Assembly: GCA_035529855.1 (NCBI GenBank)
Contig: DATKVX010000044.1
Span: 12,189 to 76,188 of the forward strand
DNA: 64,000 bases
Reading direction: 5' to 3'
DNA from: a bacterium
GTDB lineage: Bacteria > RBG-13-66-14 > B26-G2 > WVWN01
Numbering within the stretch: the first letter of the stretch is position 1; each line of letters opens with the position of its first letter. The position numbers were made by a program, and so were the translations under genes. The notes under the pieces were generated by a model, which was given only the letters and a program-made list of their open reading frames with translations, was not told where the DNA came from and made no database searches. Positions 4,477-45,237 of this stretch are shown here, piece by piece.

Positions 4477-5013
4477 ATGGGAGACCAAAGGGAAAACGGA
4501 GAAAATATGGCGCGCTTGCGCGCCAAAGTGCACCTCGAGCGAGGCCGCCACTACTTCAACGCCAACCGCTTTGCGGAGGCGTTGGCGGCACTCGAGGAAG
4601 CCATAGCGGCGGACCCCGAATTTGTACGCGCGTATACCGCCAAAGCCAACACGCTGGCCATGTTGGGACGGGCCGAGGAAGCTATCGCCATTTGCGACGA
4701 AATAATAGCGAAGAACCCTACCTTCGCGTTGGCGTATACGACCAAGGCGTCGTCGCTCCACCGCGCCGGCCGGTCGGCCGAAGCGGCCGAAAACTACCGC
4801 CGCGGCATCGACCTCGCCCCCGACGAACACTTGACCCATTACAACTTCGCATGCTTCTGGGCGTTGGAGGGCAACGAAGAAGAGTGCGCGAAATACTTGC
4901 GGCGCGCGCTCGAGCTCGAGCCCAGGTCTAAACCCAAGGCGGCCACCGACGACGACTTCGCTTCGGTGCGGGGAAAAGAGTGGTTCCAAAACCTCGTCGC
5001 TTTCGGGAGCTAA
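4477..5013 (+). CDS. TPR-repeat protein
   Basis: Several 34-aa TPR-like repeats (AEALAALEEAIAADPEF…, AYTTKASSLHRAGRSAEAAENYRRGIDLAPDE…). Confidence 0.7.
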   Translation: MGDQRENGENMARLRAKVHLERGRHYFNANRFAEALAALEEAIAADPEFVRAYTAKANTLAMLGRAEEAIAICDEIIAKNPTFALAYTTKASSLHRAGRSAEAAENYRRGIDLAPDEHLTHYNFACFWALEGNEEECAKYLRRALELEPRSKPKAATDDDFASVRGKEWFQNLVAFGS

Positions 5014-8954: not shown

Positions 8955-9027
8955 TGGAGCAGATCGGATTCGAACCGACGGCCTCCTCCGTGCGAGGGAG
9001 GCGCTCTTCCAGCTGAGCTACTGCCCC
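8955..9027 (-). tRNA. tRNA-Ala (anticodon CGC)
   Basis: Folded by hand into a 73-nt cloverleaf: acceptor stem GGGGCAG/CTGCTCC with the G3:U70 alanine identity pair and discriminator A; anticodon loop CTCGCAC; T-arm GGTTCGAATCC. CCA is not encoded. Confidence 0.85.
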
Positions 9028-22594: not shown

Positions 22595-23419
22595 TTACCC
22601 CTTTCGATCTACGGCCCCGGCCAGCGGGTGCTGGCGTCGGAACTCGTAAAGGGTTACGGCCGCCGCGGCGGCCACGTTTAGCGACGGTACGTTGCCGGCG
22701 AGCGGGATGGCCACGACGGCGTCGCACTCCCTCCGCGCCGCCGCGCTCAGGCCTACGCCCTCGCCGCCGAGGACGAACGCCGCGCCCCGGCCGAACTCGA
22801 GCTCATCCATCCGCGCCTCGCCGTCCGCTTCCAAACCGTAACACCAAATCTCTGCCTCTTTTACTTGCCGCAAAAACTGAGCGACGTTGGCCACCGGTAC
22901 CACCGGCACGTATTCCAAACCGCCCTCCGCCACTTTGGCTACCGAAGGGGTAACCTGAACCTGGCGTCGAGGCGGGAAGAAGACGCCTCCCGCGCCGAAC
23001 GCCGCCGCCGAGCGGACGACCGAGCCTAAATTGCGTGGGTCCTCCACGTGGTCCAGCACCACGAACGGCTTTCCGCCCCGCGACTCGGCCACGAGCTCCT
23101 CCCAGGCCGGCGTCTGTTTTTTAGCGACGTACGCGGCGACGCCCTGGTGAAAATCTCCGCCCGCGAGTTCCGTCAGCTCCCGATTCGCGACCACGTTTAA
23201 TTCCGCGCCCACCTCCCGGGCGAGCCGCCTTATCTCATCCACCGCTTCGCCGCCGCCGGTACGGTCCACTATCACCGTGTGCACGGTACGCGTCCCGGCC
23301 CCGAGCGCCGCCAGAACGCTGTTCCGGCCTACCACGATGTCGAAAGGCGCGCTCGGGCGGCGTTTGCGACGCGCCACTACTTGGGAACCTCCACGCCCCG
23401 GCCGTGTTCCCATAACCAC
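22595..23419 (-). CDS. rlmB: SpoU/TrmH-family rRNA 2'-O-methyltransferase (RlmB-like)
   Basis: N-terminal L30e-like segment, then SPOUT motifs (LDHVEDPRNLGSVVRSAAAFG…, AIPLAGNVPSLNVAAAAAVTLYE). The start is uncertain: ATG at 23419 or GTG at 23377. Confidence 0.75.
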   Translation of the reverse strand: MVMGTRPGRGGSQVVARRKRRPSAPFDIVVGRNSVLAALGAGTRTVHTVIVDRTGGGEAVDEIRRLAREVGAELNVVANRELTELAGGDFHQGVAAYVAKKQTPAWEELVAESRGGKPFVVLDHVEDPRNLGSVVRSAAAFGAGGVFFPPRRQVQVTPSVAKVAEGGLEYVPVVPVANVAQFLRQVKEAEIWCYGLEADGEARMDELEFGRGAAFVLGGEGVGLSAAARRECDAVVAIPLAGNVPSLNVAAAAAVTLYEFRRQHPLAGAVDRKG

Positions 23420-24126
23420 TTGACCGCGGCCTCCCGCCTCGCCTGGTCCCGGCCGGCGCGCTTCAGGTACCGCACGTAGTAATCCCCCGCCTTCCCCTCC
23501 TCGCCCAAATATTTATAGGCCTCGGCCAGGCCGTAATAGGCTTCGGCCTGGGCGGCGTCAAGCGCTATGGCCTTCTCGAAGGCCGCGACGGCGGCCGCGG
23601 CATCGCCCTCGCGCAGCTCGACGTTGCCGAGGTTGACGTGCGCCGAAGCGAAGCTCGGCTCGAGGGCCACCGCCCGTTCGGCCGCGGCGCGCGCGTCGGC
23701 GACTTTGCCTTGCCGTAGGTACGCTATGGAGAGGTTGTTCCACCCCTTACAATGGTCCGGGTCCGCGGCCACGGCGTTCGACAACGTTTTGGCGGCCATA
23801 TCGACGTCGCCCACGCGGAGGTACGCCAACCCCAGGCTCACCTTCGAATCGGTCGAGGGGTTCCGCGCGACGATGCGCTGATAACGCTCGATGGCGCCGT
23901 CGTAGTCCCCCTGCAGAATCAAGATATGCGCGATCCACTCGTGGGCCTCGACCAGGTTGGGGTCTTCGGTCAAGCTTTTCTCGAACGCGGCCACGGCCTC
24001 CTCGTAGCGGCCCGCGTTCGTCTTCGCGACGCCGTCGTTGAAGAAAGCCGCGGCCTCGGGCGTCGTCTGCGTCGCCCCGGCCGCGGCCGCTAAAGCCACA
24101 AAACCGTATATGGCAAATTTCCTCAT
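23377..24126 (-). CDS. Secreted TPR-repeat protein
   Basis: Signal peptide plus at least five TPR repeats. Confidence 0.7.
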   Translation of the reverse strand: MRKFAIYGFVALAAAAGATQTTPEAAAFFNDGVAKTNAGRYEEAVAAFEKSLTEDPNLVEAHEWIAHILILQGDYDGAIERYQRIVARNPSTDSKVSLGLAYLRVGDVDMAAKTLSNAVAADPDHCKGWNNLSIAYLRQGKVADARAAAERAVALEPSFASAHVNLGNVELREGDAAAAVAAFEKAIALDAAQAEAYYGLAEAYKYLGEEGKAGDYYVRYLKRAGRDQARREAAVKWLWEHGRGVEVPK

Positions 24127-29777: not shown

Positions 29778-30003
29778 CGCCGCCTAACGGGCCGGCCCGA
29801 CGTGGTCCCGAAAAGGGAAAACCCTAAGGCGTATCATCCTCGAGCGGGACGTCGCGAGACACCGGCCGTTCGGTAAGGGCGGCCCGAAGCGCGCGCGCGA
29901 CGTCGCGCAATACAATCCCCGGGTGAATCGGCACGGCCGCGCATGCTTTATAAACCTTGCCCGCGTCGCGCCGTTATGGTAGTAATTGAAGCAATCTAAA
30001 TTT

Positions 30004-30744
30004 ATGGTAAAAAAGCTCGAAAACGTCAAACCCTCGATAACCGTAATATTCCCCGCCTTCAACGAGGAGGCCAACGTCGTCGCGTCGGTGGAGGGCGCGC
30101 GCGAGGCGCTGGCGACGCGCCACGGGGATTTCGAGATCGTCGTTGTGGACGACGGCTCGACGGACCGGACGCCGGCGCTGGCCGACGAGCTCGCGGTCAA
30201 ATACGCCGAGGTAAAAGCGATACACCACGACCGCAATTACAAGCTGGGCCGGACGCTGCGCACCGGCTTCGCCGCGGCCACCAAGGACCTCGTCTTCTAC
30301 ACCGACGCCGACCTCCCCATAGACTTCCGCGACGTCCACCGCGGCGTCGATTTACTGCTCCGGGACGGTGCCGACGTCGTGGCGGGCTACCGGCTCGAGC
30401 GCGGCGACAGCTGGTGGCGCAGCATATATTCGGTCGCGTATAACCGATTGATTAACGCGCTCTTCCGGCTGGGCGTGCAGGACGTCAACTTCTCGTACAA
30501 GCTGTTCACCAAAAAGGCCTTGCAAAAGCTTCCGCTGACGTCGGAGGGGTCCTTCATTGACGCGGAAATGCTCGCCCGGGCGAAGTTGGCGGGATTGCGC
30601 GTTACCCCGCTCGGCGTCCACTACTTCCCCAGGCGCGCCGGGCGGTCGACCCTCGCGTCGCCGGGAGTTATCTTGAAAATATTGGCCGAAATGAGCCGGT
30701 TTTGGTGGCGGGCGTGGCGACCCCGGAGCAGGCGTGCGGACTAA
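30004..30744 (+). CDS. GT2-family glycosyltransferase (dolichyl-phosphate mannose / polyprenol-phosphate glycosyltransferase-like)
   Basis: ITVIFPAFNEE…VVDDGSTDRT…DADL motifs. ATG at 30004 preferred over the TTG at 29986. Confidence 0.75.
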   Translation: MVKKLENVKPSITVIFPAFNEEANVVASVEGAREALATRHGDFEIVVVDDGSTDRTPALADELAVKYAEVKAIHHDRNYKLGRTLRTGFAAATKDLVFYTDADLPIDFRDVHRGVDLLLRDGADVVAGYRLERGDSWWRSIYSVAYNRLINALFRLGVQDVNFSYKLFTKKALQKLPLTSEGSFIDAEMLARAKLAGLRVTPLGVHYFPRRAGRSTLASPGVILKILAEMSRFWWRAWRPRSRRAD

Positions 30745-30784
30745 CGGAGGCCGTAAATCATCATTTTTAAAGGACGAAGGTTTG

Positions 30785-30813
30785 TTGACCAAAAAGCTGC
30801 TGTGTGATAGAAT
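30785..30813 (+). promoter_or_regulatory. Sigma70-like promoter TTGACC-N17-TAGAAT upstream of the membrane/cyclase module
   Basis: Hexamers and 17-nt spacer read directly. An AGGAGG ribosome-binding site follows before the ATG at 30862. Confidence 0.5.
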
Positions 30814-30861
30814 GTTGTTGAACGAAAGCAGGAGGCGCGGACGCAACGCGGGACGGTAACG

Positions 30862-31497
30862 ATGGGATTTCGCTTGTTCGACGTACTGTTCGCGGTGGTA
30901 CTCGTCTTGGCGGCGGTCGCCGTTGCCGCCGCATTTTACCTCGTTTCGCCCTACCCGGCCGTAATAGTCGCGGCCTTCGCCGCGGGCGCTACGACCTTCC
31001 TTTACTTAACCGTACGGGCTAAACTGGGCGGCATCTTGGAGACGGTGGAGCGGCGGCTCGCGACGCAAGAGCACGAGGCCGCGGAGCACCGCGCCGCCCT
31101 CGACAAATCGTTCGCCGAAATCGAACGCCTGACGCGCACGATACGGGAACAGGTCCAAGCGGCGAACGAGAAGAGCGCCCGGGAAAATGAGGCGCTGCGG
31201 AAGAACGTAAACGACGTACTCGCCCGATTCGCCGCCCAGATCGAAAAAACGACCTCGACGGTGGACGACACCAAACAGGTTCTGGACAAGAAGGCGGCGG
31301 TACTTCACGAACGAGTAAGGGAACTGGAGCATTACCGGGAAGAGACGGCGAAGCTGCTCGCCGGCTTCCGGGAGGAGTTCGACACGTTCACTACCGACGA
31401 ACAGCACTTCCGCGAAGTTATGGAAGCCAGCCTGGCCGAGAGGGTCTCGTACCTGGAAGATTTCATCCGCGAAAAACGTAAGAGCTTGCAGATCTAA
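30862..31497 (+). CDS. Membrane-anchored coiled-coil protein (2 N-terminal TM helices)
   Basis: Hydrophobic N-terminus, then about 150 aa of heptad-rich helix. Confidence 0.5.
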   Translation: MGFRLFDVLFAVVLVLAAVAVAAAFYLVSPYPAVIVAAFAAGATTFLYLTVRAKLGGILETVERRLATQEHEAAEHRAALDKSFAEIERLTRTIREQVQAANEKSARENEALRKNVNDVLARFAAQIEKTTSTVDDTKQVLDKKAAVLHERVRELEHYREETAKLLAGFREEFDTFTTDEQHFREVMEASLAERVSYLEDFIREKRKSLQI

Positions 31498-31505
31498 CAA
31501 CGGGC

Positions 31506-32732
31506 ATGGCAGAGGAAGGAAATAACAACGAAATCCGGGCCACGGTCCTATTCGTGGACATCATAAACTCGACCGGGATATCGGGCGTCCAGGACGCGGT
31601 CAGCTACAACAAGATGCTCACCGAATTCCAGTCGCTGATGTTCGACGTTATCGTAGACCACGTCCTACGCTACCGCTACGTACCGCGCGAAAGCATGTCC
31701 GGCCGCGGCGTAGACATACGAGTGGGCGAAGATTACGAATGGGACATCGAGGGCGACGAGGTGCGCGTATTCCTGTACTCGGGGAATACCGAGTACGACG
31801 TGCGCTCCGCGCTGCAACTGGGCGCGAAGATGAAACTGGCCTGGCTCACTTCGGACTTCAATTACGGAGCCTTCGAGGACAAGGGGCTCGTATTCGACGT
31901 CGGCATAGGGGTGCATACCGGGAAAGTAATCCGCGAAACCAAGGACTGGCGGGTGCGCAGCCGCGACGCCGTGCCCCGCATCGACGGTTTTACGATAAAC
32001 ATCGGGAAAAAGGTAGAGCAATATTCCCGCTCGGGCCAGGTCTACGAATTCTTCGTAAGCGGAAACGTCCGTTCGATACTCGAGCAAAGCAAAAATTTCG
32101 CCGTCAAGTTCTCCTCGGACAAACAACAGAAACTTAAAGATTCCGCGATTACCATCGCCATCTTCGAGGTGGTCTCATTTCTCGACCACGAGATATTCGT
32201 TTTCCTCCCGGAAGCGCTCAAGAAGCGCACCCTCGACCGCGCCTTGGAGTTGGTCCAAACCGCCCACCTGCGCCGCGACCTCTTCTGGTTGTATTTGCTC
32301 GTCATGAGGTTCTGGCTGATGGACGTTACGGGCAAGGAGGAATCGCGGGACGCGGCGGACCGCATCATCCGCCTGGGCTCCGCGGTGATGAACTTCGCCT
32401 CGCAGCTGAGTAAACCGGAACAGACGTACGTGCGGGATTACCTTTCCTCGGTCAACAATATGATCGCGCTCGCCTATACCGCCCGCGGCCTCGAGTCCGA
32501 CCAGCTCTTCGCACGGAAGATCTTCAATATGACGCTGGGTAAAATCGACCGGCAAAACATACCGGCGCGCCTCCACCTCGCCCGTTACCTGCTGGAAGCG
32601 GGCGACTTTAAGGCGGCCACGAAACACTGCGCGGACATACTAATGCTCGACCCCGGCAACCCGACGGCGAAAGCGATCATAGGCAGGGCCGCGGGCGAAG
32701 CGGCGCGCCACGGCGCCGAAACGCCGCGGTAA
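31506..32732 (+). CDS. Class-III nucleotidyl cyclase (CHD) domain protein with a C-terminal TPR-like helical domain
   Basis: TVLFVDIINSTGI (metal-binding Asp), EGDEVRVF (second Asp), GIGVHTGKVI and GFTINIGKKVEQ match the adenylyl/guanylyl cyclase catalytic core in the correct order and spacing. About 200 aa of helical repeats follow. Confidence 0.6.
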   Translation: MAEEGNNNEIRATVLFVDIINSTGISGVQDAVSYNKMLTEFQSLMFDVIVDHVLRYRYVPRESMSGRGVDIRVGEDYEWDIEGDEVRVFLYSGNTEYDVRSALQLGAKMKLAWLTSDFNYGAFEDKGLVFDVGIGVHTGKVIRETKDWRVRSRDAVPRIDGFTINIGKKVEQYSRSGQVYEFFVSGNVRSILEQSKNFAVKFSSDKQQKLKDSAITIAIFEVVSFLDHEIFVFLPEALKKRTLDRALELVQTAHLRRDLFWLYLLVMRFWLMDVTGKEESRDAADRIIRLGSAVMNFASQLSKPEQTYVRDYLSSVNNMIALAYTARGLESDQLFARKIFNMTLGKIDRQNIPARLHLARYLLEAGDFKAATKHCADILMLDPGNPTAKAIIGRAAGEAARHGAETPR

Positions 32733-32740
32733 AACCCGCT

Positions 32741-33334
32741 ATGGGTAAACGGTTTAACACGCTAATAATACTCCCGGCGCTCGTCGCGCTCGTCGGCCTC
32801 GCCGGGGCCGAAACCGGGCCGCTGCCCAAAGGCGTAATAAAAGCCAAAAAGGTCGGAACCGTCCCCACCGCGGTTTGGCTCGCCGAGTGCCAGACGGTAT
32901 TCGAAGACTTCCTGGAAACGCGGAAGGACCTGGACGAGCTGGTGGAAGCGGGCGGCTTCGCCGACGCCCCGGGCCGGTTGGAGCAAGCTATTATTAACCA
33001 AACGGTGCCGGCGGCCAAGGCCGCGGTCGACTTCTGCGCCGCGTACGTCCCCGATACGAAATGGGGCGAGCAACTCCGCCTCGAGATCATCGACGCCACG
33101 GTAAGCTCGCTGGCGGCGGACGCTCACGTCGTCGACGTCTTGCAAGGCAAGGCCGAATCCAAGGTTCCCGTCGCCGATATGCTTATGGAGCAGCGGGAGG
33201 TCAGCAGCGACCTTATCGCCCGCGTTCACCAGCGCATCTTAAACGCGCCCAAGAAATACCGCTCCAAGCCGGAGGAGCTGGCGCCGTCGCGGGAATACTA
33301 CTTCCAGGACTTCCACTATCGCGCCCGGCGTTAA
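32741..33334 (+). CDS. Secreted hypothetical protein
   Basis: Signal peptide MGKRFNTLIILPALVALVGLAGA. No recognisable domain. Confidence 0.45.
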   Translation: MGKRFNTLIILPALVALVGLAGAETGPLPKGVIKAKKVGTVPTAVWLAECQTVFEDFLETRKDLDELVEAGGFADAPGRLEQAIINQTVPAAKAAVDFCAAYVPDTKWGEQLRLEIIDATVSSLAADAHVVDVLQGKAESKVPVADMLMEQREVSSDLIARVHQRILNAPKKYRSKPEELAPSREYYFQDFHYRARR

Positions 33335-33365
33335 ACGTCCTGAATTAACCGTACTCGGATTTCCC

Positions 33366-33390
33366 GGCCCGCCGCGGCCGGTTTTTAACG
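33366..33390 (+). terminator. Rho-independent terminator (CCGGCCcgccgcGGCCGG-TTTTT)
   Basis: Hairpin plus T-run after the 32741..33334 gene. Confidence 0.7.
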
Positions 33391-33481
33391 TACGCCACGG
33401 CCGGAAAACACTTTATCGGCGGCGGCCGTTATGTTATAAATTCGAGTTTGGACGCCGGCCTTCTACCCGCGCCTGCGAACG

Positions 33482-35425
33482 ATGCCCGCCATAACAAACG
33501 TCAAACCCTTCGGCACGCTAGCCGACGACGACTACCGCGAGATAGGCTTCCGCGGCGGCCTCGAGATCCACCAACAACTCCTGACCGCCTCCAAGCTCTT
33601 CTGCCGCTGCCCCGCGGGCCTTTACTCGTACGACTACGACGCCAAGATCCTGCGCCACATGCGGCCTACCCTCTCCGAAATGGGCGAGTACGACGGCACC
33701 GCGCTCATGGAATTCAAGACTCGCAAGAACATAATCTACCGCACCAAGCAGAAGAGCTGCTGCACCTACGAGATGGACGATACGCCCCCCTTCGATATGG
33801 ACGAGGAATCCATCGACGCCGGCCTGAAGGTCTCGCTGCTGTTGAATTGCAACGTCGTCGCCGAGATGCACATCATCCGCAAACAATACCTCGACGGCTC
33901 CATCCCCACCGGTTTCCAACGTACCGCCATCGTGGGCGTCGAAGGTTACGTGCCGTATCGGGGCCGGCGCATCGGCATCAAACAGCTCGCGGTGGAGGAA
34001 GACTCTTGCCGCGAGGTGAGCGACGAGGGCCACGAACGGACCTACCTCACCGACCGCCTGGGCATGCCGCTCATCGAAACCGTTACCCACCCCGATATGG
34101 AGACGCCGTGGGAAATCGCCGAGGTGGGGCAACTCCTGCGCCGCCTCACCCGTTCCACCGGCCTCGTGCGCACCGGCATCGGCGCGGCCCGCGAGGACGT
34201 AAACGTGTCCGTCGCCGGCGGCACCCGCGTCGAGATCAAAGGCGTGCCGCGCCTCAAGGCCATACCGCGCCTCGTCCACAATGAGGCCATGCGGCAGCGG
34301 GCCCTACTCGACATACGCGCCGAGCTGAAGCGCCGAGGGATAACGGCCAGGTCTTTCCGAGCCGCGGTGGAGGACGTGTCGGGCGAATTCGCGAAAAATG
34401 CGCGCCGGCCCCCCGGCCGGGCCGTCCTGGACGGCGGCCGCGTCTACGCCGTGGCGCTCCGCGGTTACCGCGGCATCCTCGGCGCCCGCACCCAGGAGAC
34501 CAAGCACTTCGTGGACGAGATATCGGACCGGGTACGCGTCGTAGCATGCCTCGACCGGCTGCCGAATATCTTCGACGACGAGACCTCGCGCCGTCGTATG
34601 GACGGAGCTATCTGGCGCCGCCTGCGCCGCAAGCTTAAAACCGACCGCGGCGACGTCGTCGTGCTGGTGTGGGGGCCGCCGGCCGACGCCCGCCTGGGCG
34701 CCGACGAGGTCGTACTCCGCGCGCGGGAGGCCACGCTGGGCGTGCCGTCCGATACGCGCCAGGCCCTGGCCGACGGCACCAACGGCTTCGAACGGATCTT
34801 GCCCGGGCCGGACCGGATGTACCCCGATACCGACCGGCCGCCCATCACAATATCGGAAGAACGCGTCGCCGCGCTGGCGGCGGACCTCCCGGAACCGATC
34901 TGGGCGCGCGAAGAGCGCTACCGGGAGGGGGGCGTCCCGGAGGATTGCATCGCGCCGCTCGCCGCGTCGCGTTGGGTCCGTACGTTCGAAAAAGCCGTAA
35001 ACGAGTACGGCGTCGAGGCCAAATTCGCGGCCACGGTATTCATGCACAAGTTGAAGGGGTGGCGGCGGCGGGGGCGGCCCGTGGACGAGCTGGCCGAGGG
35101 CGACGTCGAAAGGGCGTTTTCCCTTTATGGCCGGGGAAAGATTACGCGGGAAGGCGTCGTCGCGGCGCTCGAGGCTCACGTGTCCCGCGGCGTGCCGCTG
35201 CGCCGCGCCCTCAACGACCTGCGACACGGCCGGGAAGCGAGGGAACGCGTCGCCGCCGCCGTAAAAAGAGTAAAACGAAAAGTCAAAAGACGCCGCTTCC
35301 CCGCCGGCCCCGCGGCGGTAAAGCGCTTCGCCATGGGCGAGCTAATGGCCGAGTTCCGGGGGCTGATACCCGGCGCCGAGTTGGCCCAAATCGCGACGGA
35401 AGAAATATCGCCGGCTGCTGGATAA
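33482..35425 (+). CDS. gatE: Archaeal-type Glu-tRNA(Gln) amidotransferase subunit E
   Basis: N-terminal GLEIHQQL…KLFCRCP GatB/E catalytic signature. 647-aa length with a large central insertion and a GatB_YqeY-like tail, which fits GatE rather than the roughly 480-aa GatB. Partner gatD lies downstream. Confidence 0.7.
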   Translation: MPAITNVKPFGTLADDDYREIGFRGGLEIHQQLLTASKLFCRCPAGLYSYDYDAKILRHMRPTLSEMGEYDGTALMEFKTRKNIIYRTKQKSCCTYEMDDTPPFDMDEESIDAGLKVSLLLNCNVVAEMHIIRKQYLDGSIPTGFQRTAIVGVEGYVPYRGRRIGIKQLAVEEDSCREVSDEGHERTYLTDRLGMPLIETVTHPDMETPWEIAEVGQLLRRLTRSTGLVRTGIGAAREDVNVSVAGGTRVEIKGVPRLKAIPRLVHNEAMRQRALLDIRAELKRRGITARSFRAAVEDVSGEFAKNARRPPGRAVLDGGRVYAVALRGYRGILGARTQETKHFVDEISDRVRVVACLDRLPNIFDDETSRRRMDGAIWRRLRRKLKTDRGDVVVLVWGPPADARLGADEVVLRAREATLGVPSDTRQALADGTNGFERILPGPDRMYPDTDRPPITISEERVAALAADLPEPIWAREERYREGGVPEDCIAPLAASRWVRTFEKAVNEYGVEAKFAATVFMHKLKGWRRRGRPVDELAEGDVERAFSLYGRGKITREGVVAALEAHVSRGVPLRRALNDLRHGREARERVAAAVKRVKRKVKRRRFPAGPAAVKRFAMGELMAEFRGLIPGAELAQIATEEISPAAG

Positions 35426-35449: not shown

Positions 35450-36289
35450 ATGGAACCGCTTACGAAAGCGTCGGAATACGTCATCGGGGCTGGGAAGGCA
35501 TATCACCTTCTCGAGCTCAGCCTCGCCGGCGTCGACGTACCGCGAGCCCTGGCCGACCTCGTCGCCGAAATCACCGGCTCCCAAAACGACGACGGCTCCT
35601 TCGTCGGCACGCGCGCCACAGGGGAACCGGGGAGCGTCCCCGTCACCGCCGGCGTGGTGGAAATACTCGCCCGGGAGGGCGCCGCCGACGCCGCGACGAA
35701 GGGCGCGGCCTGGCTCGCGGCGATGCAGCGGCCCGACGGCGGCTTCTGCGAGAACCCGGCGCTGGCGGCCGACCTCAAACCGGAATGGGATTGGTTCTCG
35801 GCCCAAAACGCGGTGACGTGGATAACGGGCGACGCGATCGTGGCGCTCGCGGCCGTAGGCGTTTTCGATAAAAATATTACCCTCGCCCGGAATTTCCTGT
35901 TGCGGACGCGTAACAAGGACGGCGGTTGGCCGGGGCAGGTGGCGCCGGACTACCCGGACCGGACGGACTTGTGGACCATCCCGGGCGTCGTGCGGGGCCT
36001 CCTGGCGGCGGGGATCGCCCCCAACCACGACGCCTTCGCCGGCCTATCCGCAGCGCTGGCCCGTCAGAAGGAACGCTGGCGCAACCCGGTCGAAAATCCG
36101 CTGCCGGCCTTCCTCGCCCTCGGCCGGCGCGGGACCGACGGCGACGTCCAAGAATGTTTAAAGTTACTGGCCCAAACGCAAAACGACGACGGCGGTTGGC
36201 CGTACCTCGCGGGCGACGAATCGCATCCCGACCCGACAACGGCCGTCGTCGCGCTGCTCGCGAAGTATAGGCTCTCGTTACCCGCTTGA
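35450..36289 (+). CDS. Prenyltransferase/squalene-oxidase-repeat (alpha/alpha-toroid) protein
   Basis: Repeated QNDDGSF / QRPDGGF / RNKDGGW / QNDDGGWPY motifs, the canonical terpenoid cyclase / protein prenyltransferase beta-subunit repeat. 279 aa. Confidence 0.65.
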   Translation: MEPLTKASEYVIGAGKAYHLLELSLAGVDVPRALADLVAEITGSQNDDGSFVGTRATGEPGSVPVTAGVVEILAREGAADAATKGAAWLAAMQRPDGGFCENPALAADLKPEWDWFSAQNAVTWITGDAIVALAAVGVFDKNITLARNFLLRTRNKDGGWPGQVAPDYPDRTDLWTIPGVVRGLLAAGIAPNHDAFAGLSAALARQKERWRNPVENPLPAFLALGRRGTDGDVQECLKLLAQTQNDDGGWPYLAGDESHPDPTTAVVALLAKYRLSLPA

Positions 36290-36336: not shown

Positions 36337-37740
36337 ATGGCGAAAAAGGAAACGGAGCAAGACCTTTACAAAGGCTACCGCGGCGCCGCGCTCAAATGCC
36401 TTAAGAAATACGGCGTCAAGGTTTGGAGCGACGTCGTCATCGACTCGGGCCGGGGCCGCTTCGAGGGAAGGGTACTACCCCGCGCCGAGTCCGGTGACGA
36501 CCAGCACATCGTCATCAAGATCGCCTCCGGGTACAACGTCGGCGTCGCCGCCGCTTCTATAACCGGCATAGAAGAAACCGGCCGCACCGTCGCCCATTAC
36601 AAGATTCCCGAGAAGGAGTTCCCGTTTAAAAAAGGCCAGCCGTTCGTGAAGCTTCTGGGTACCGGCGGCACCATCGCCTCCCGCCTGGACTACCGCACCG
36701 GCGCCGTCATCCCGGCCTTCACGCCCGGCGAGCTCTACGGCGCGGTCCCGGAATTGGCCGACATCTGTAACCTCCGGACCGAAAAGCTCTTCGGCGTCTT
36801 CTCCGAAAACATGGGCGCCGAGGAATACGTCGTCCTGGCCGAGGCCATCGCCCGCGAGATCAAGAAGGGCGCGGACGGCATCGTCGTAGGCCACGGCACC
36901 GATACCATGCACCACACCGCGGCGGTCCTATCGTTCATGGTGCAGAACCCCCCCGTCCCCATCGTCCTCGTCGGCAGCCAGCGCTCCAGCGACCGCCCCT
37001 CCTCCGACGCCGCGCTCAACCTCATCCACGCCGTCAAGGCCGCCGCGGAATCGGACATCGCCGAGATAATGGTATGCATGTTCGGGCCTACCTCGGACAT
37101 CTACGGCCTCCTCCACCGCGGCACCCGCGTCCGCAAGATGCACTCGTCCTACCGGTCGACCTTCCGCACCATCGCCGACGTCCCTCTAGCGACGGTGGAC
37201 CGCGAGTGCATCACGCCGCTGCGCGACGACTACGCCCGCCGCCGCCCGGGCGACCGCAAATGCGTCCTGAACACCGCCTTCGAAGAACGAGTGGCGCTTA
37301 TATATTATTACCCCAACATGCACCCCGACATCTTCGACGCGCTCGTCGACCTGGGCTACCGCGGCATCGTCATCGCCGGGACCGGCCTGGGCCACGTCAA
37401 CAAGCCCTGCTATCCGGCGCTCAAGCACGCCCGGGAGGCCGGCGTCGCCGTCTATATGACGGTTCAGACGCTGTGGGGTTACGTCCACATGGACGTCTAC
37501 GAGACGGGGCGCGATATGCAAACCCTAGGCGTCATCCCGGCCGAGAATATGCTGCCCGAAGTCGCGTACGTCAAGCTGTGCTGGGCGCTGGGCCAGACCG
37601 ACGACCTCGACGAAGTCAAGCGGATAATGCTCACCCCGGTCGCCGGCGAAATCACCGCCCGGGAACCCACCAACGGCTACCTCATCCTCCAGGGCGGCCT
37701 ACCCGAGGTCGAGGAGTTCATCAGCGGCCACTGGAAATAG
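36337..37740 (+). CDS. gatD: Archaeal-type Glu-tRNA(Gln) amidotransferase subunit D (asparaginase-like)
   Basis: About 90-aa N-terminal domain containing SGYNVGV, then the L-asparaginase threonine motif LLGTGGTIAS and the second Thr/Lys/Asp motifs. 467 aa. Confidence 0.7.
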   Translation: MAKKETEQDLYKGYRGAALKCLKKYGVKVWSDVVIDSGRGRFEGRVLPRAESGDDQHIVIKIASGYNVGVAAASITGIEETGRTVAHYKIPEKEFPFKKGQPFVKLLGTGGTIASRLDYRTGAVIPAFTPGELYGAVPELADICNLRTEKLFGVFSENMGAEEYVVLAEAIAREIKKGADGIVVGHGTDTMHHTAAVLSFMVQNPPVPIVLVGSQRSSDRPSSDAALNLIHAVKAAAESDIAEIMVCMFGPTSDIYGLLHRGTRVRKMHSSYRSTFRTIADVPLATVDRECITPLRDDYARRRPGDRKCVLNTAFEERVALIYYYPNMHPDIFDALVDLGYRGIVIAGTGLGHVNKPCYPALKHAREAGVAVYMTVQTLWGYVHMDVYETGRDMQTLGVIPAENMLPEVAYVKLCWALGQTDDLDEVKRIMLTPVAGEITAREPTNGYLILQGGLPEVEEFISGHWK

Positions 37741-44544: not shown

Positions 44545-45237
44545 ATGACGGACGACGTTAAAAAAGCGGCTCTGGCCGCTTCGCCGCTCTTCAAAAACCT
44601 CGCCCCGGCGGACGTGGGCCGCGTCGTCGGATTCTCCGTCTTCCGCGAGCTGGAGAAGGGAGAAGTCGTCTTCCGCGAGGGGGACGACGCAGCGGCCTTC
44701 TACGTCGTCGCCTCGGGCCGGGTCAAGGTTTTCAAGGAATCGGTCGACGGCCGTGAGCTTATCATAAAAATTATGCGCGCGGGGGACCTGGTAGGCGAGG
44801 CCGCCGCGCTGGCGGGCGTCCCCTACCCGGCGACGGCCCAGGCCCTCGACGACGCGGCCGCGGTAGAAATCCCGCGCCGCGAGTTCGTGGCGTTGATCGA
44901 AAACGAGCCGGACTTAGCGCTCAACATCATCGCCGCCCTCTCGGTCCGTCTGAACCAGATAAGCGCGGTACTCGAGAAGCTCACCCTTAAAGACGTGCCG
45001 GCGCGGCTGGCGTCGTACCTTCTGGAACGGGCGCGGGCCGGCGCCGACGGCCGGGAGTCCGTCGAGCTGGACGTGACTAAGACGTCGCTCGCGGCGGAAT
45101 TGGGAACGGTCCCGGAGACGCTGAGCCGGGCGCTAAGGCGGTTCGCCGAAGCGGGCCTGGTAGCGTCCAAGGGCAGGCGTATAATCATTTTAGATAAAGC
45201 CTCGCTCGAGCTCGTCGCCGGCAGTCCGAACGGCTAG
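44545..45237 (+). CDS. Crp/Fnr-family transcriptional regulator
   Basis: cNMP-binding-like beta-roll (VFREGD…FYVVASGRVKV) and a C-terminal HTH (TKTSLAAELGTVPETLSRALRRF). Confidence 0.8.
   Translation: MTDDVKKAALAASPLFKNLAPADVGRVVGFSVFRELEKGEVVFREGDDAAAFYVVASGRVKVFKESVDGRELIIKIMRAGDLVGEAAALAGVPYPATAQALDDAAAVEIPRREFVALIENEPDLALNIIAALSVRLNQISAVLEKLTLKDVPARLASYLLERARAGADGRESVELDVTKTSLAAELGTVPETLSRALRRFAEAGLVASKGRRIIILDKASLELVAGSPNG

Follow-up and report, generated by a model that had tools for sequence, protein, structure and literature searches.

A conserved gene pair in Zixibacteria and other bacteria encodes a membrane coiled-coil protein and a CHD-TPR protein, a candidate split class III cyclase

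Results

We examined a 64,000-nucleotide stretch of bacterial DNA (GenBank assembly GCA_035529855.1, contig DATKVX010000044.1, positions 12,189 to 76,188 of the forward strand; hereafter the window) and focused on three tightly spaced open reading frames, here called A, B and C. Gene B encodes a class III cyclase homology domain (CHD) followed by tetratricopeptide repeat (TPR) helices, and gene A, directly upstream, a predicted membrane-anchored coiled-coil protein. Comparison of loci supports a linkage of A to B beyond what close relatedness explains, and by the same comparison the conserved unit is A plus B, not A-B-C. On balance we think that A and B work together as a conserved signalling unit of two proteins, in which the tail of A docks B, in effect a membrane cyclase split in two polypeptides. 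Across Zixibacteria and some other bacteria, the two genes look like an uncharacterised pair with a housekeeping role in signalling.

The whole region is syntenic within Zixibacteria, so linkage within that group is uninformative. We observed, however, that a gene with a transmembrane (TM) segment and a coiled coil lies directly upstream of a B homolog in five lineages with unrelated flanks. The pair stands between a family-2 glycosyltransferase (GT2) gene and gatE in Zixibacteria, between rsmB and an aldehyde dehydrogenase gene in locus L018, between tmk and queH in L022 and L030, beside an epimerase gene in L023, and between uvrC-gltX and nusG in L032 and L033. The gap from partner to B is 2-5 nt in the other lineages and 8 nt in the window. 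The upstream partners in those other lineages are 162-269 aa long and in every readable case have one N-terminal hydrophobic segment, a long charged stretch and 2-6% Pro/Gly; the contigs of three relatives (P0021, P0026 and P0028) hold no upstream DNA. Relatives of B at 31-37% identity (P0022, P0023 and P0024) sit in neighbourhoods that differ entirely from the window, as do members of a deltaproteobacterial clade of B relatives, which comprises more than 180 clusters. A metagenome locus scan with a six-sequence alignment returned six loci, all from lineages already found. The initial annotation of this DNA had described a three-gene module and named neighbourhood conservation as a check on it. 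B homologs proved to be linked to an A-like gene in distant lineages, and the module therefore holds for A and B, which recur together in five lineages, but not for C, which is limited to the Zixibacteria clade.

The partners share no alignable sequence with A beyond the extreme C-terminus. When the Zixibacteria A set was compared with the other partners using hhalign, only the last 16 residues aligned, in register at both C-termini (probability 94.8%, E 5e-8). Examples of the tail are ...YLEDFIREKRKSLQI (window), ...LLKDFIREKRRSGEL, ...YIEDSLRERRRDLMA and ...MRDFIRERTIDLEL, and the pattern [DE]-[FDS]-[IL]-R-[ED] describes the motif. In A the invariant motif occupies residues 200-211 (DFIREKRKSLQI; 31459..31494, plus strand), and over these 12 terminal residues 11 Zixibacteria orthologs agree completely (100%). 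Elsewhere in the protein, blocks within residues 31-50 are about 90% conserved among orthologs and the central coiled coil 51-65% per 10-residue block. The length of A is 211 aa in every Zixibacteria ortholog, and as a whole A evolves faster than B across these loci.

Gene A (30862..31497, plus strand) was characterised by hydropathy and composition. A Kyte-Doolittle window scan placed two hydrophobic, presumably TM, segments in residues 1-52 (30862..31017), split by S29-P30-Y31-P32; beyond residue 52 the protein is 44% charged with 0.7% Pro+Gly. These features fit the membrane protein with two TM segments and a coiled coil that had been annotated here. From the flanking Arg and Lys residues we infer an N-in/C-in topology. 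Searches of Pfam, NCBIfam and PADLOC with A gave weak coiled-coil family matches only. Assignment of A as ZorA, JetC or LmuB was rejected, as the PADLOC scores (at most 20.3 bits) reflect generic coiled-coil similarity; the ZorA matches cover residues 58-199 of A and only the tail of ZorA. In Zorya systems, ZorA combines a multi-TM stator domain of the MotA/ExbB type with a long tail and is encoded beside ZorB, in contrast to A, a 211-aa protein with a two-segment anchor and no ZorB-like neighbour.

Protein B (408 aa; 31506..32732, plus strand) was modelled with AlphaFold2 on an alignment of 146 diverse relatives, giving a predicted local distance difference test score (pLDDT) of 94.4 and a predicted template modelling score of 0.92; with only 20 close homologs the model was unusable (pLDDT 56, CHD core below 50). 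Residues 1-8 are coil in the model and the first strand starts at residue 9. The class III CHD spans residues 9-225 (31530..32180) and is followed by a TPR-type all-helical domain of nine helices at residues 229-405 (32190..32720), in which W261, R268 and N318 are conserved across the subfamily. The CHD includes a putative dimerisation arm, a long beta4-beta5 hairpin consisting of a strand at 132-144, a short helix at 147-151 and a strand at 158-160. In a Foldseek search against PDB the best matches were all class III adenylyl or guanylyl cyclases (Cya2, Rv1900c, Ma1120 and CyaC; probability 1.00), with target-normalised template modelling scores of 0.70-0.82 for matches of this class. By sequence, a CHD-only profile of diverse relatives recovered Cya2 (E 1.6e-12) and Pseudomonas aeruginosa CyaB (E 2e-11). 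The Pfam match of B to Guanylate_cyc (PF00211; 25.5 bits, curated cut-off 21.9) would be marginal if taken alone, and the match to TPR_19, at 22.1 bits, falls under the cut-off of 25; when PDB sequences were searched with a profile of the B clade, designed TPR proteins (E 0.0013) were the only matches. Since the fold matches and the CHD profile agree, B is assigned as a CHD protein and not as GGDEF- or DinB-like, an alternative named in the initial annotation. Model and profiles together confirm a real class III CHD followed by TPR helices, and thus both the N-terminal cyclase domain and the C-terminal helical repeats of the initial annotation (about 180 residues here, about 200 as annotated).

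An exhaustive profile search placed B in a wider family of 311 representatives at E<=0.001, 98 of them at E<=1e-10, in which a divergent CHD at the N-terminus precedes TPR repeats. Most of the best 150 relatives match via the CHD and extend 140-540 residues beyond it. Among 78 sampled members, Guanylate_cyc was found in 63 and TPR_19 in 42, and many relatives of B carry the JGI label 'class 3 adenylate cyclase'. B is thus a divergent member of a known CHD-TPR architecture. No fused A-B protein was present among 139 representative relatives, whose N-terminal extensions are NTP_transferase domains or unrelated sequence.

In several distant CHD-TPR relatives (P0036, P0042, P0050, P0058 and the fragment P0048) a domain of about 250 aa is fused N-terminal to the CHD; by eye it looks to be of the sugar-nucleotidyltransferase type. 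Sugar-nucleotide or glycosyltransferase genes also lie near unfused members, namely the GT2 gene beside A in the window, the epimerase gene in L023 and an NTP_transferase gene in L024. The CHD-TPR family may have a link to polysaccharide or sugar-nucleotide metabolism.

The cyclase motifs initially quoted for B are all present: LFVDIINSTGI (D18), EGDEVRVF (D84), IGVHTG (134-139) and GFTINIGKKVEQ (N165, K169). The corresponding codons are at 31557-31559 (D18), 31755-31757 (D84), 31998-32000 (N165) and 32010-32012 (K169) on the plus strand. In the alignment to Cya2 and CyaB, D18 and D84 fall on the metal-binding Asp residues, N165 on the ribose-orienting Asn and position 169 on the transition-state Arg. 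IGVHTG, annotated as the transition-state loop, instead corresponds to the conserved motif of beta4, and it is N165 and position 169 that form the transition-state pair. Close homologs of B form a small clade of just 20 clusters at 67% identity or more. Both metal Asp residues are invariant in this clade, and 71 of 73 members of the wider family also have them. All 15 active-site and motif positions examined are invariant in the clade. For eight of these (D18, D84, E85, N165, K168, K169, E171 and R175) the chance of joint invariance in the 20 sequences is about 0.001, an estimate in which 43% of CHD columns are invariant, and we therefore consider the pocket of B to be under constraint. The two base-specifying positions were located in a register checked on Cya2 (E at -4, G at -7). 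The first, four residues before D84, is D80 in B (D in 15, E in 4 and N in 1 of the 20 sequences), and the second, seven before N165, is R158 (20/20). Simple motif searches across 119 clusters of the deltaproteobacterial sister clade recovered the first Asp motif in all of them, GDE in 105 and N-x3-R in 117.

The three open reading frames have exactly the coordinates and lengths first described, with intergenic gaps of 8 nt each between A and B and between B and C, and lie between a promoter-like and a terminator-like site. The sigma-70-type promoter-like site (30785..30813, plus strand) consists of a -35 element TTGACC (30785-30790), a 17-nt spacer with TG at 30805-30806, and a -10 element TAGAAT (30808-30813); it matches 10 of 12 consensus positions in addition to the TG extension. 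Sites as good occur twice in 3.8 kb, against 0.9 expected. A TTGnnn-16/18-TAnnnT pattern is found at the same position upstream of A in 16/16 orthologous loci, in which the neighbouring intergenic DNA has diverged, and this positional conservation is stronger evidence than the consensus match alone. The annotated promoter thus stands as a site (10/12, with TG, kept in 16 loci), and co-transcription of the genes from it is predicted from sequence only. Downstream of C, a hairpin with six G-C pairs and a 6-nt loop (CCGGCC...GGCCGG, 33364-33381) is followed by TTTTT (33364..33386, plus strand). The terminator called here is present as hairpin and T run, but such sites number nine in the scanned region against 5.5 expected; it is a consensus match only and on its own weak evidence. 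An Rfam scan of the whole 64-kb window matched only a single tRNA gene (RF00005, 67 bits), at 8955-9027 on the minus strand, and nothing at or close to the module.

Gene C (32741..33334, plus strand) encodes a predicted exported protein of 197 aa. A single N-terminal hydrophobic segment at residues 4-28 is consistent with a signal peptide (approximately residues 1-23; 32741-32809) and with the secreted protein annotated after B. No Pfam, NCBIfam or PADLOC family matched C. Its homologs form 42 clusters, all at least 53% identical, and those with an organism name are Zixibacteria. C is 62-93% identical where B is 72-93% identical, and no C-like gene follows any of the distant A-B pairs (L018, L022/L030, L023 and L032/L033). 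By these comparisons C is a real gene restricted to the Zixibacteria clade.

Relatives with a B as little as about 70% identical still show the gene order GT2 / A-B-C / gatE-x-gatD. The neighbouring housekeeping genes include those for a YjeF-type NAD(P)HX repair fusion (by Pfam), an AroB-like dehydroquinate synthase (266 bits, under the equivalog cut-off of 305) and the GT2. Downstream of C, gatE (33482-35425; NCBIfam equivalog, 505 bits against a cut-off of 456) and gatD (36337-37740; equivalog, 510 bits against 324) enclose a small alpha/alpha-toroid gene of 279 aa (35450-36289) with weak prenyltransferase or squalene-cyclase-like matches. A gene of equal size and Pfam match is found between gatE and gatD in loci L001 and L004. 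As far as known, GatD and GatE are characteristic of archaea; here both are encoded in a bacterial Zixibacteria genome, and we found no paper naming both GatDE and Zixibacteria. The carrier genome records are mostly metagenome assemblies, three named Candidatus Zixiibacteriota and one labelled Coatesbacteria. B has no match in the phage and plasmid collections. The GC content is 0.60 in the 30-34 kb segment (30001-34000) against 0.67-0.69 in adjacent 2-kb bins; as lows of 0.58-0.61 also occur elsewhere in the window, we did not take the low GC of the module as a sign of foreign origin. From gene order and distribution, the locus appears to be vertically inherited, clade-wide and in a housekeeping context.

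The record labelled 'Candidatus Coatesbacteria bacterium' (L017; CP070633.1, 697057-714145) contains a GT2-A-B locus with a B 78% identical to that of the window. It has runs of N within B and nearby genes, and after B a different gene, for a 692-aa predicted membrane protein; the N runs explain why C and the end of B seem to be missing. The organism label or the assembly may be unreliable.

Elsewhere in the window, a Crp/Fnr-family regulator is encoded 11 kb downstream of the module (44545-45237, plus strand; cNMP_binding 89 bits, HTH_Crp_2 67 bits). Its phosphate-binding cassette is GEAAALAGVPYPATA, with no Arg at the cyclic-phosphate position. Going by this motif, the protein is probably no receptor for cyclic nucleotide monophosphates (cNMPs), and we set it aside as a receptor for the module. 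Two more small stand-alone TPR proteins are encoded at 4477-5013 (plus strand) and 23377-24126 (minus strand), the N-terminus of the latter being hydrophobic and resembling a signal peptide. The genome seems to be rich in TPR proteins.

Discussion

We propose that B acts as a soluble class III nucleotidyl cyclase of minimal form, its CHD preceded by neither a sensor domain nor a coiled coil and joined to a TPR domain for protein binding. A would provide a membrane anchor and a long cytoplasmic coiled coil, and B would dock on its C-terminal tail (DFIRE...). Activity of class III CHDs requires a head-to-tail dimer, and TPR domains commonly bind C-terminal peptides. Given a cyclase without a sensor and a partner in which the tail is the single strongly conserved cytoplasmic element, these properties suggest that A docks B by the tail. 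We consider the TPR groove the most likely binding site; alternatively, the tail may dock on the CHD as a transducer helix in trans. In membrane class III cyclases a coiled-coil transducer element lies directly N-terminal to the CHD, and the gene order seen here (coiled coil, tail, stop codon, CHD) mirrors this order of transducer helix and CHD. A coiled-coil dimer of A would probably recruit two copies of B, and in this way both hold the cyclase at the membrane and govern its dimerisation. Tethering, and possibly dimerisation, of the soluble cyclase B is the most likely role of A. The product would be a cyclic nucleotide. C would be co-transcribed with the pair and exported, and we claim no functional tie between it and A-B; the periplasmic loop of A, at about four residues, would leave little for an exported protein to contact. 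A more detailed version of this proposal, to which we give little credence, takes A-B as a split cyclase with its dimerising or transducing element supplied in trans via the DFIRE tail, and has the Zixibacteria enzyme (D/E80-R158, Lys169) produce, instead of cAMP, another nucleotide, with cGMP and a pyrimidine cNMP as candidates, that would serve as a housekeeping and not an immune messenger.

Several observations weigh against a docked, active cyclase. The coiled-coil state and oligomeric form of A are deduced from composition only. P0031, a more distant CHD-TPR relative with visible upstream context, has no such partner, which implies that the A-B pair defines a subfamily. No cNMP receptor was found linked to the module. 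Of the complete Asp/Asn/Arg set, D18, D84 and N165 are in place but the Arg is not: position 169 is Lys throughout the clade, as the initial annotation had noted for the window, and Arg in 66 of 73 wider family members, so that of the N-x-x-x-R signature B has the Asn and a Lys for the Arg. Inspection of the substrate-specifying residues had been put forward as another check. Canonical pairs are Lys/Asp or Lys/Thr for ATP and Glu/Cys, Glu/Gly and the like for GTP; the acidic residue at 80 recalls guanylyl cyclases in part, and the D80/R158 pair fits neither adenylyl nor guanylyl cyclases nor any other characterised class. In three sister lineages the catalytic residues are degenerate, with the second Asp replaced by Glu and the Arg by His in P0021, Asn by Ser and Arg by Lys in P0022, and the first metal Asp by Asn and the Arg by Thr in P0023. 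The partner gene is present for P0022 and P0023 (the P0021 record has no flanks). This pattern suggests that the pair outlasted repeated losses of catalysis, and the conserved function of A-B may be independent of catalysis.

These same substitutions, together with the noncanonical D80 and R158 and the lack of a linked receptor (the Crp-family protein of the window being without the phosphate-binding Arg), favour an alternative in which B is a pseudo-cyclase. Its CHD would then be a ligand-binding or scaffolding domain, and A-B a structural or regulatory membrane complex without a cyclic-nucleotide product, for which the non-catalytic CHD of AdvA is a precedent. We regard this as unlikely for B, though a good deal less so than the other alternatives considered below. 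Both metal Asp residues, the Asn, a basic residue at 169 and all other active-site positions are invariant across the clade, Lys retains the positive charge, and nearly all sequences of the largest sister clade keep the complete D/D/N/R set. Rv1900c is reportedly active without the canonical Lys-Asp pair, which we also count against a pseudo-cyclase. It is also conceivable that A, B and C are functionally unrelated and merely share the operon of one lineage, as the region-wide synteny within Zixibacteria and the confinement of C to that group would allow. The recurrence of an A-like/B pair at 2-5 nt in four further lineages, with different flanks and a common C-terminal motif, makes this unlikely for A and B, and for the module as a whole we think it improbable; for C it may hold.

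The initial annotation had drawn an analogy to Pycsar defence. In our view it is highly improbable that the genes form an anti-phage system, Pycsar-like or otherwise based on cNMPs, in which A or C is the effector, and as far as sequence can tell we rejected this on the comparisons that follow. Foldseek does find the PycC structures 7r65 (rank 17) and 8jsf (rank 47), PADLOC gives weak PycC matches, and some Pycsar effectors are membrane proteins. The best PADLOC PycC match to B, however, reaches 17.5 bits (E 5.8e-4) over residues 7-51 only; the PycC matches span just the first metal motif and score far under the matches to ordinary cyclases. An N-terminal alpha-helix before the CHD is a hallmark of PycC cyclases (PMC11224242), and B, with its first strand at residue 9 in the AlphaFold2 model, does not have it. 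A and C gave no cNMP_binding or TIR match in Pfam, NCBIfam or PADLOC, in agreement with the effector noted as missing from the outset, and the distant A-B pairs have a coiled-coil partner only and no effector. The housekeeping synteny of the clade (gatDE, GT2), seen in all members from 67 to 96% identity, the position of the pair between housekeeping genes in other lineages and the absence of phage or plasmid copies point to a vertically inherited housekeeping locus rather than a defence system. A small stand-alone cyclase beside a membrane protein is not in itself evidence for Pycsar-like defence.

The docked cyclase is the reading we prefer. Few bacterial signalling enzymes are as widespread as class III cyclases; to our knowledge, regulation of the members studied to date comes mostly from domains on the same polypeptide. 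A-B departs from this cleanly and repeatedly, in that anchor and coiled coil reside in a protein of their own, recognisable by a C-terminal motif of 12-16 residues. If the tail does dock on the TPR domain or on the CHD, such a cyclase would be regulated by a separate partner protein. It would also give a function to several hundred proteins from Zixibacteria, Desulfobacterota and other uncultured lineages whose database labels are 'hypothetical', 'TPR repeat protein' or 'class 3 adenylate cyclase'. Cyclases of the CHD-TPR type have been known before, but as far as we have found the partner protein and the tail motif are undescribed, and our literature search turned up no description of the A-B pair.

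Comparison with known systems

PycC enzymes resemble B in being small stand-alone CHD enzymes with a matching fold (7r65, 8jsf). Besides the N-terminal helix, PycC systems differ in having a PycTIR or PycTM effector with a cNMP-binding domain, and B has no significant PADLOC match and no defence-island or mobile context. Mycobacterial proteins of the Rv0386, Rv1358 and Rv2488c type combine CHD, NB-ARC ATPase, TPR and LuxR helix-turn-helix domains in about 1,000 aa or more. B shares with them an N-terminal CHD and TPRs in one protein, but has no ATPase and no DNA-binding output domain.

AdvA of Acinetobacter baumannii has a non-catalytic CHD-like domain in a membrane-associated complex (bioRxiv 10.64898/2026.04.03.716176). 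It lacks the catalytic residues and the dimerisation arm, whereas B keeps the D/D/N residues, a basic residue and the long beta4-beta5 arm. For the proposed docking there are functional analogies, with no homology claimed, in systems that pair a TPR domain with a partner most conserved at its extreme C-terminus. The TPR domains of Hop and CHIP bind the C-terminal tails of Hsp70/90, and a preprint pairs CHIP with membrane-anchored CHIC2 (bioRxiv 10.1101/2023.07.17.549407).

In architecture B is close to XC_0250 of Xanthomonas campestris, a CHD-TPR protein shown by experiment to be a guanylate cyclase (PMC3770947). Like B, it has an N-terminal CHD followed by TPR repeats and no N-terminal sensor. 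It is, however, 886 aa long compared to 408, with a long uncharacterised region between CHD and TPRs, and B differs from it by the Lys at the Arg position. XC_0250 is paired with the cNMP-GGDEF receptor gene XC_0249, B with a gene for a membrane coiled-coil protein. Membrane class III cyclases of the Rv1625c type carry a TM anchor, a coiled-coil or transducer element and the CHD in one chain. A-B follows the same order of anchor, coiled coil, short conserved helix and CHD, and the CHD of B would likewise depend on dimerisation. In A-B, however, the anchor and coiled coil are on a separate polypeptide, set off by a stop codon, an 8-nt gap and a different reading frame, and the CHD carries a C-terminal TPR domain.

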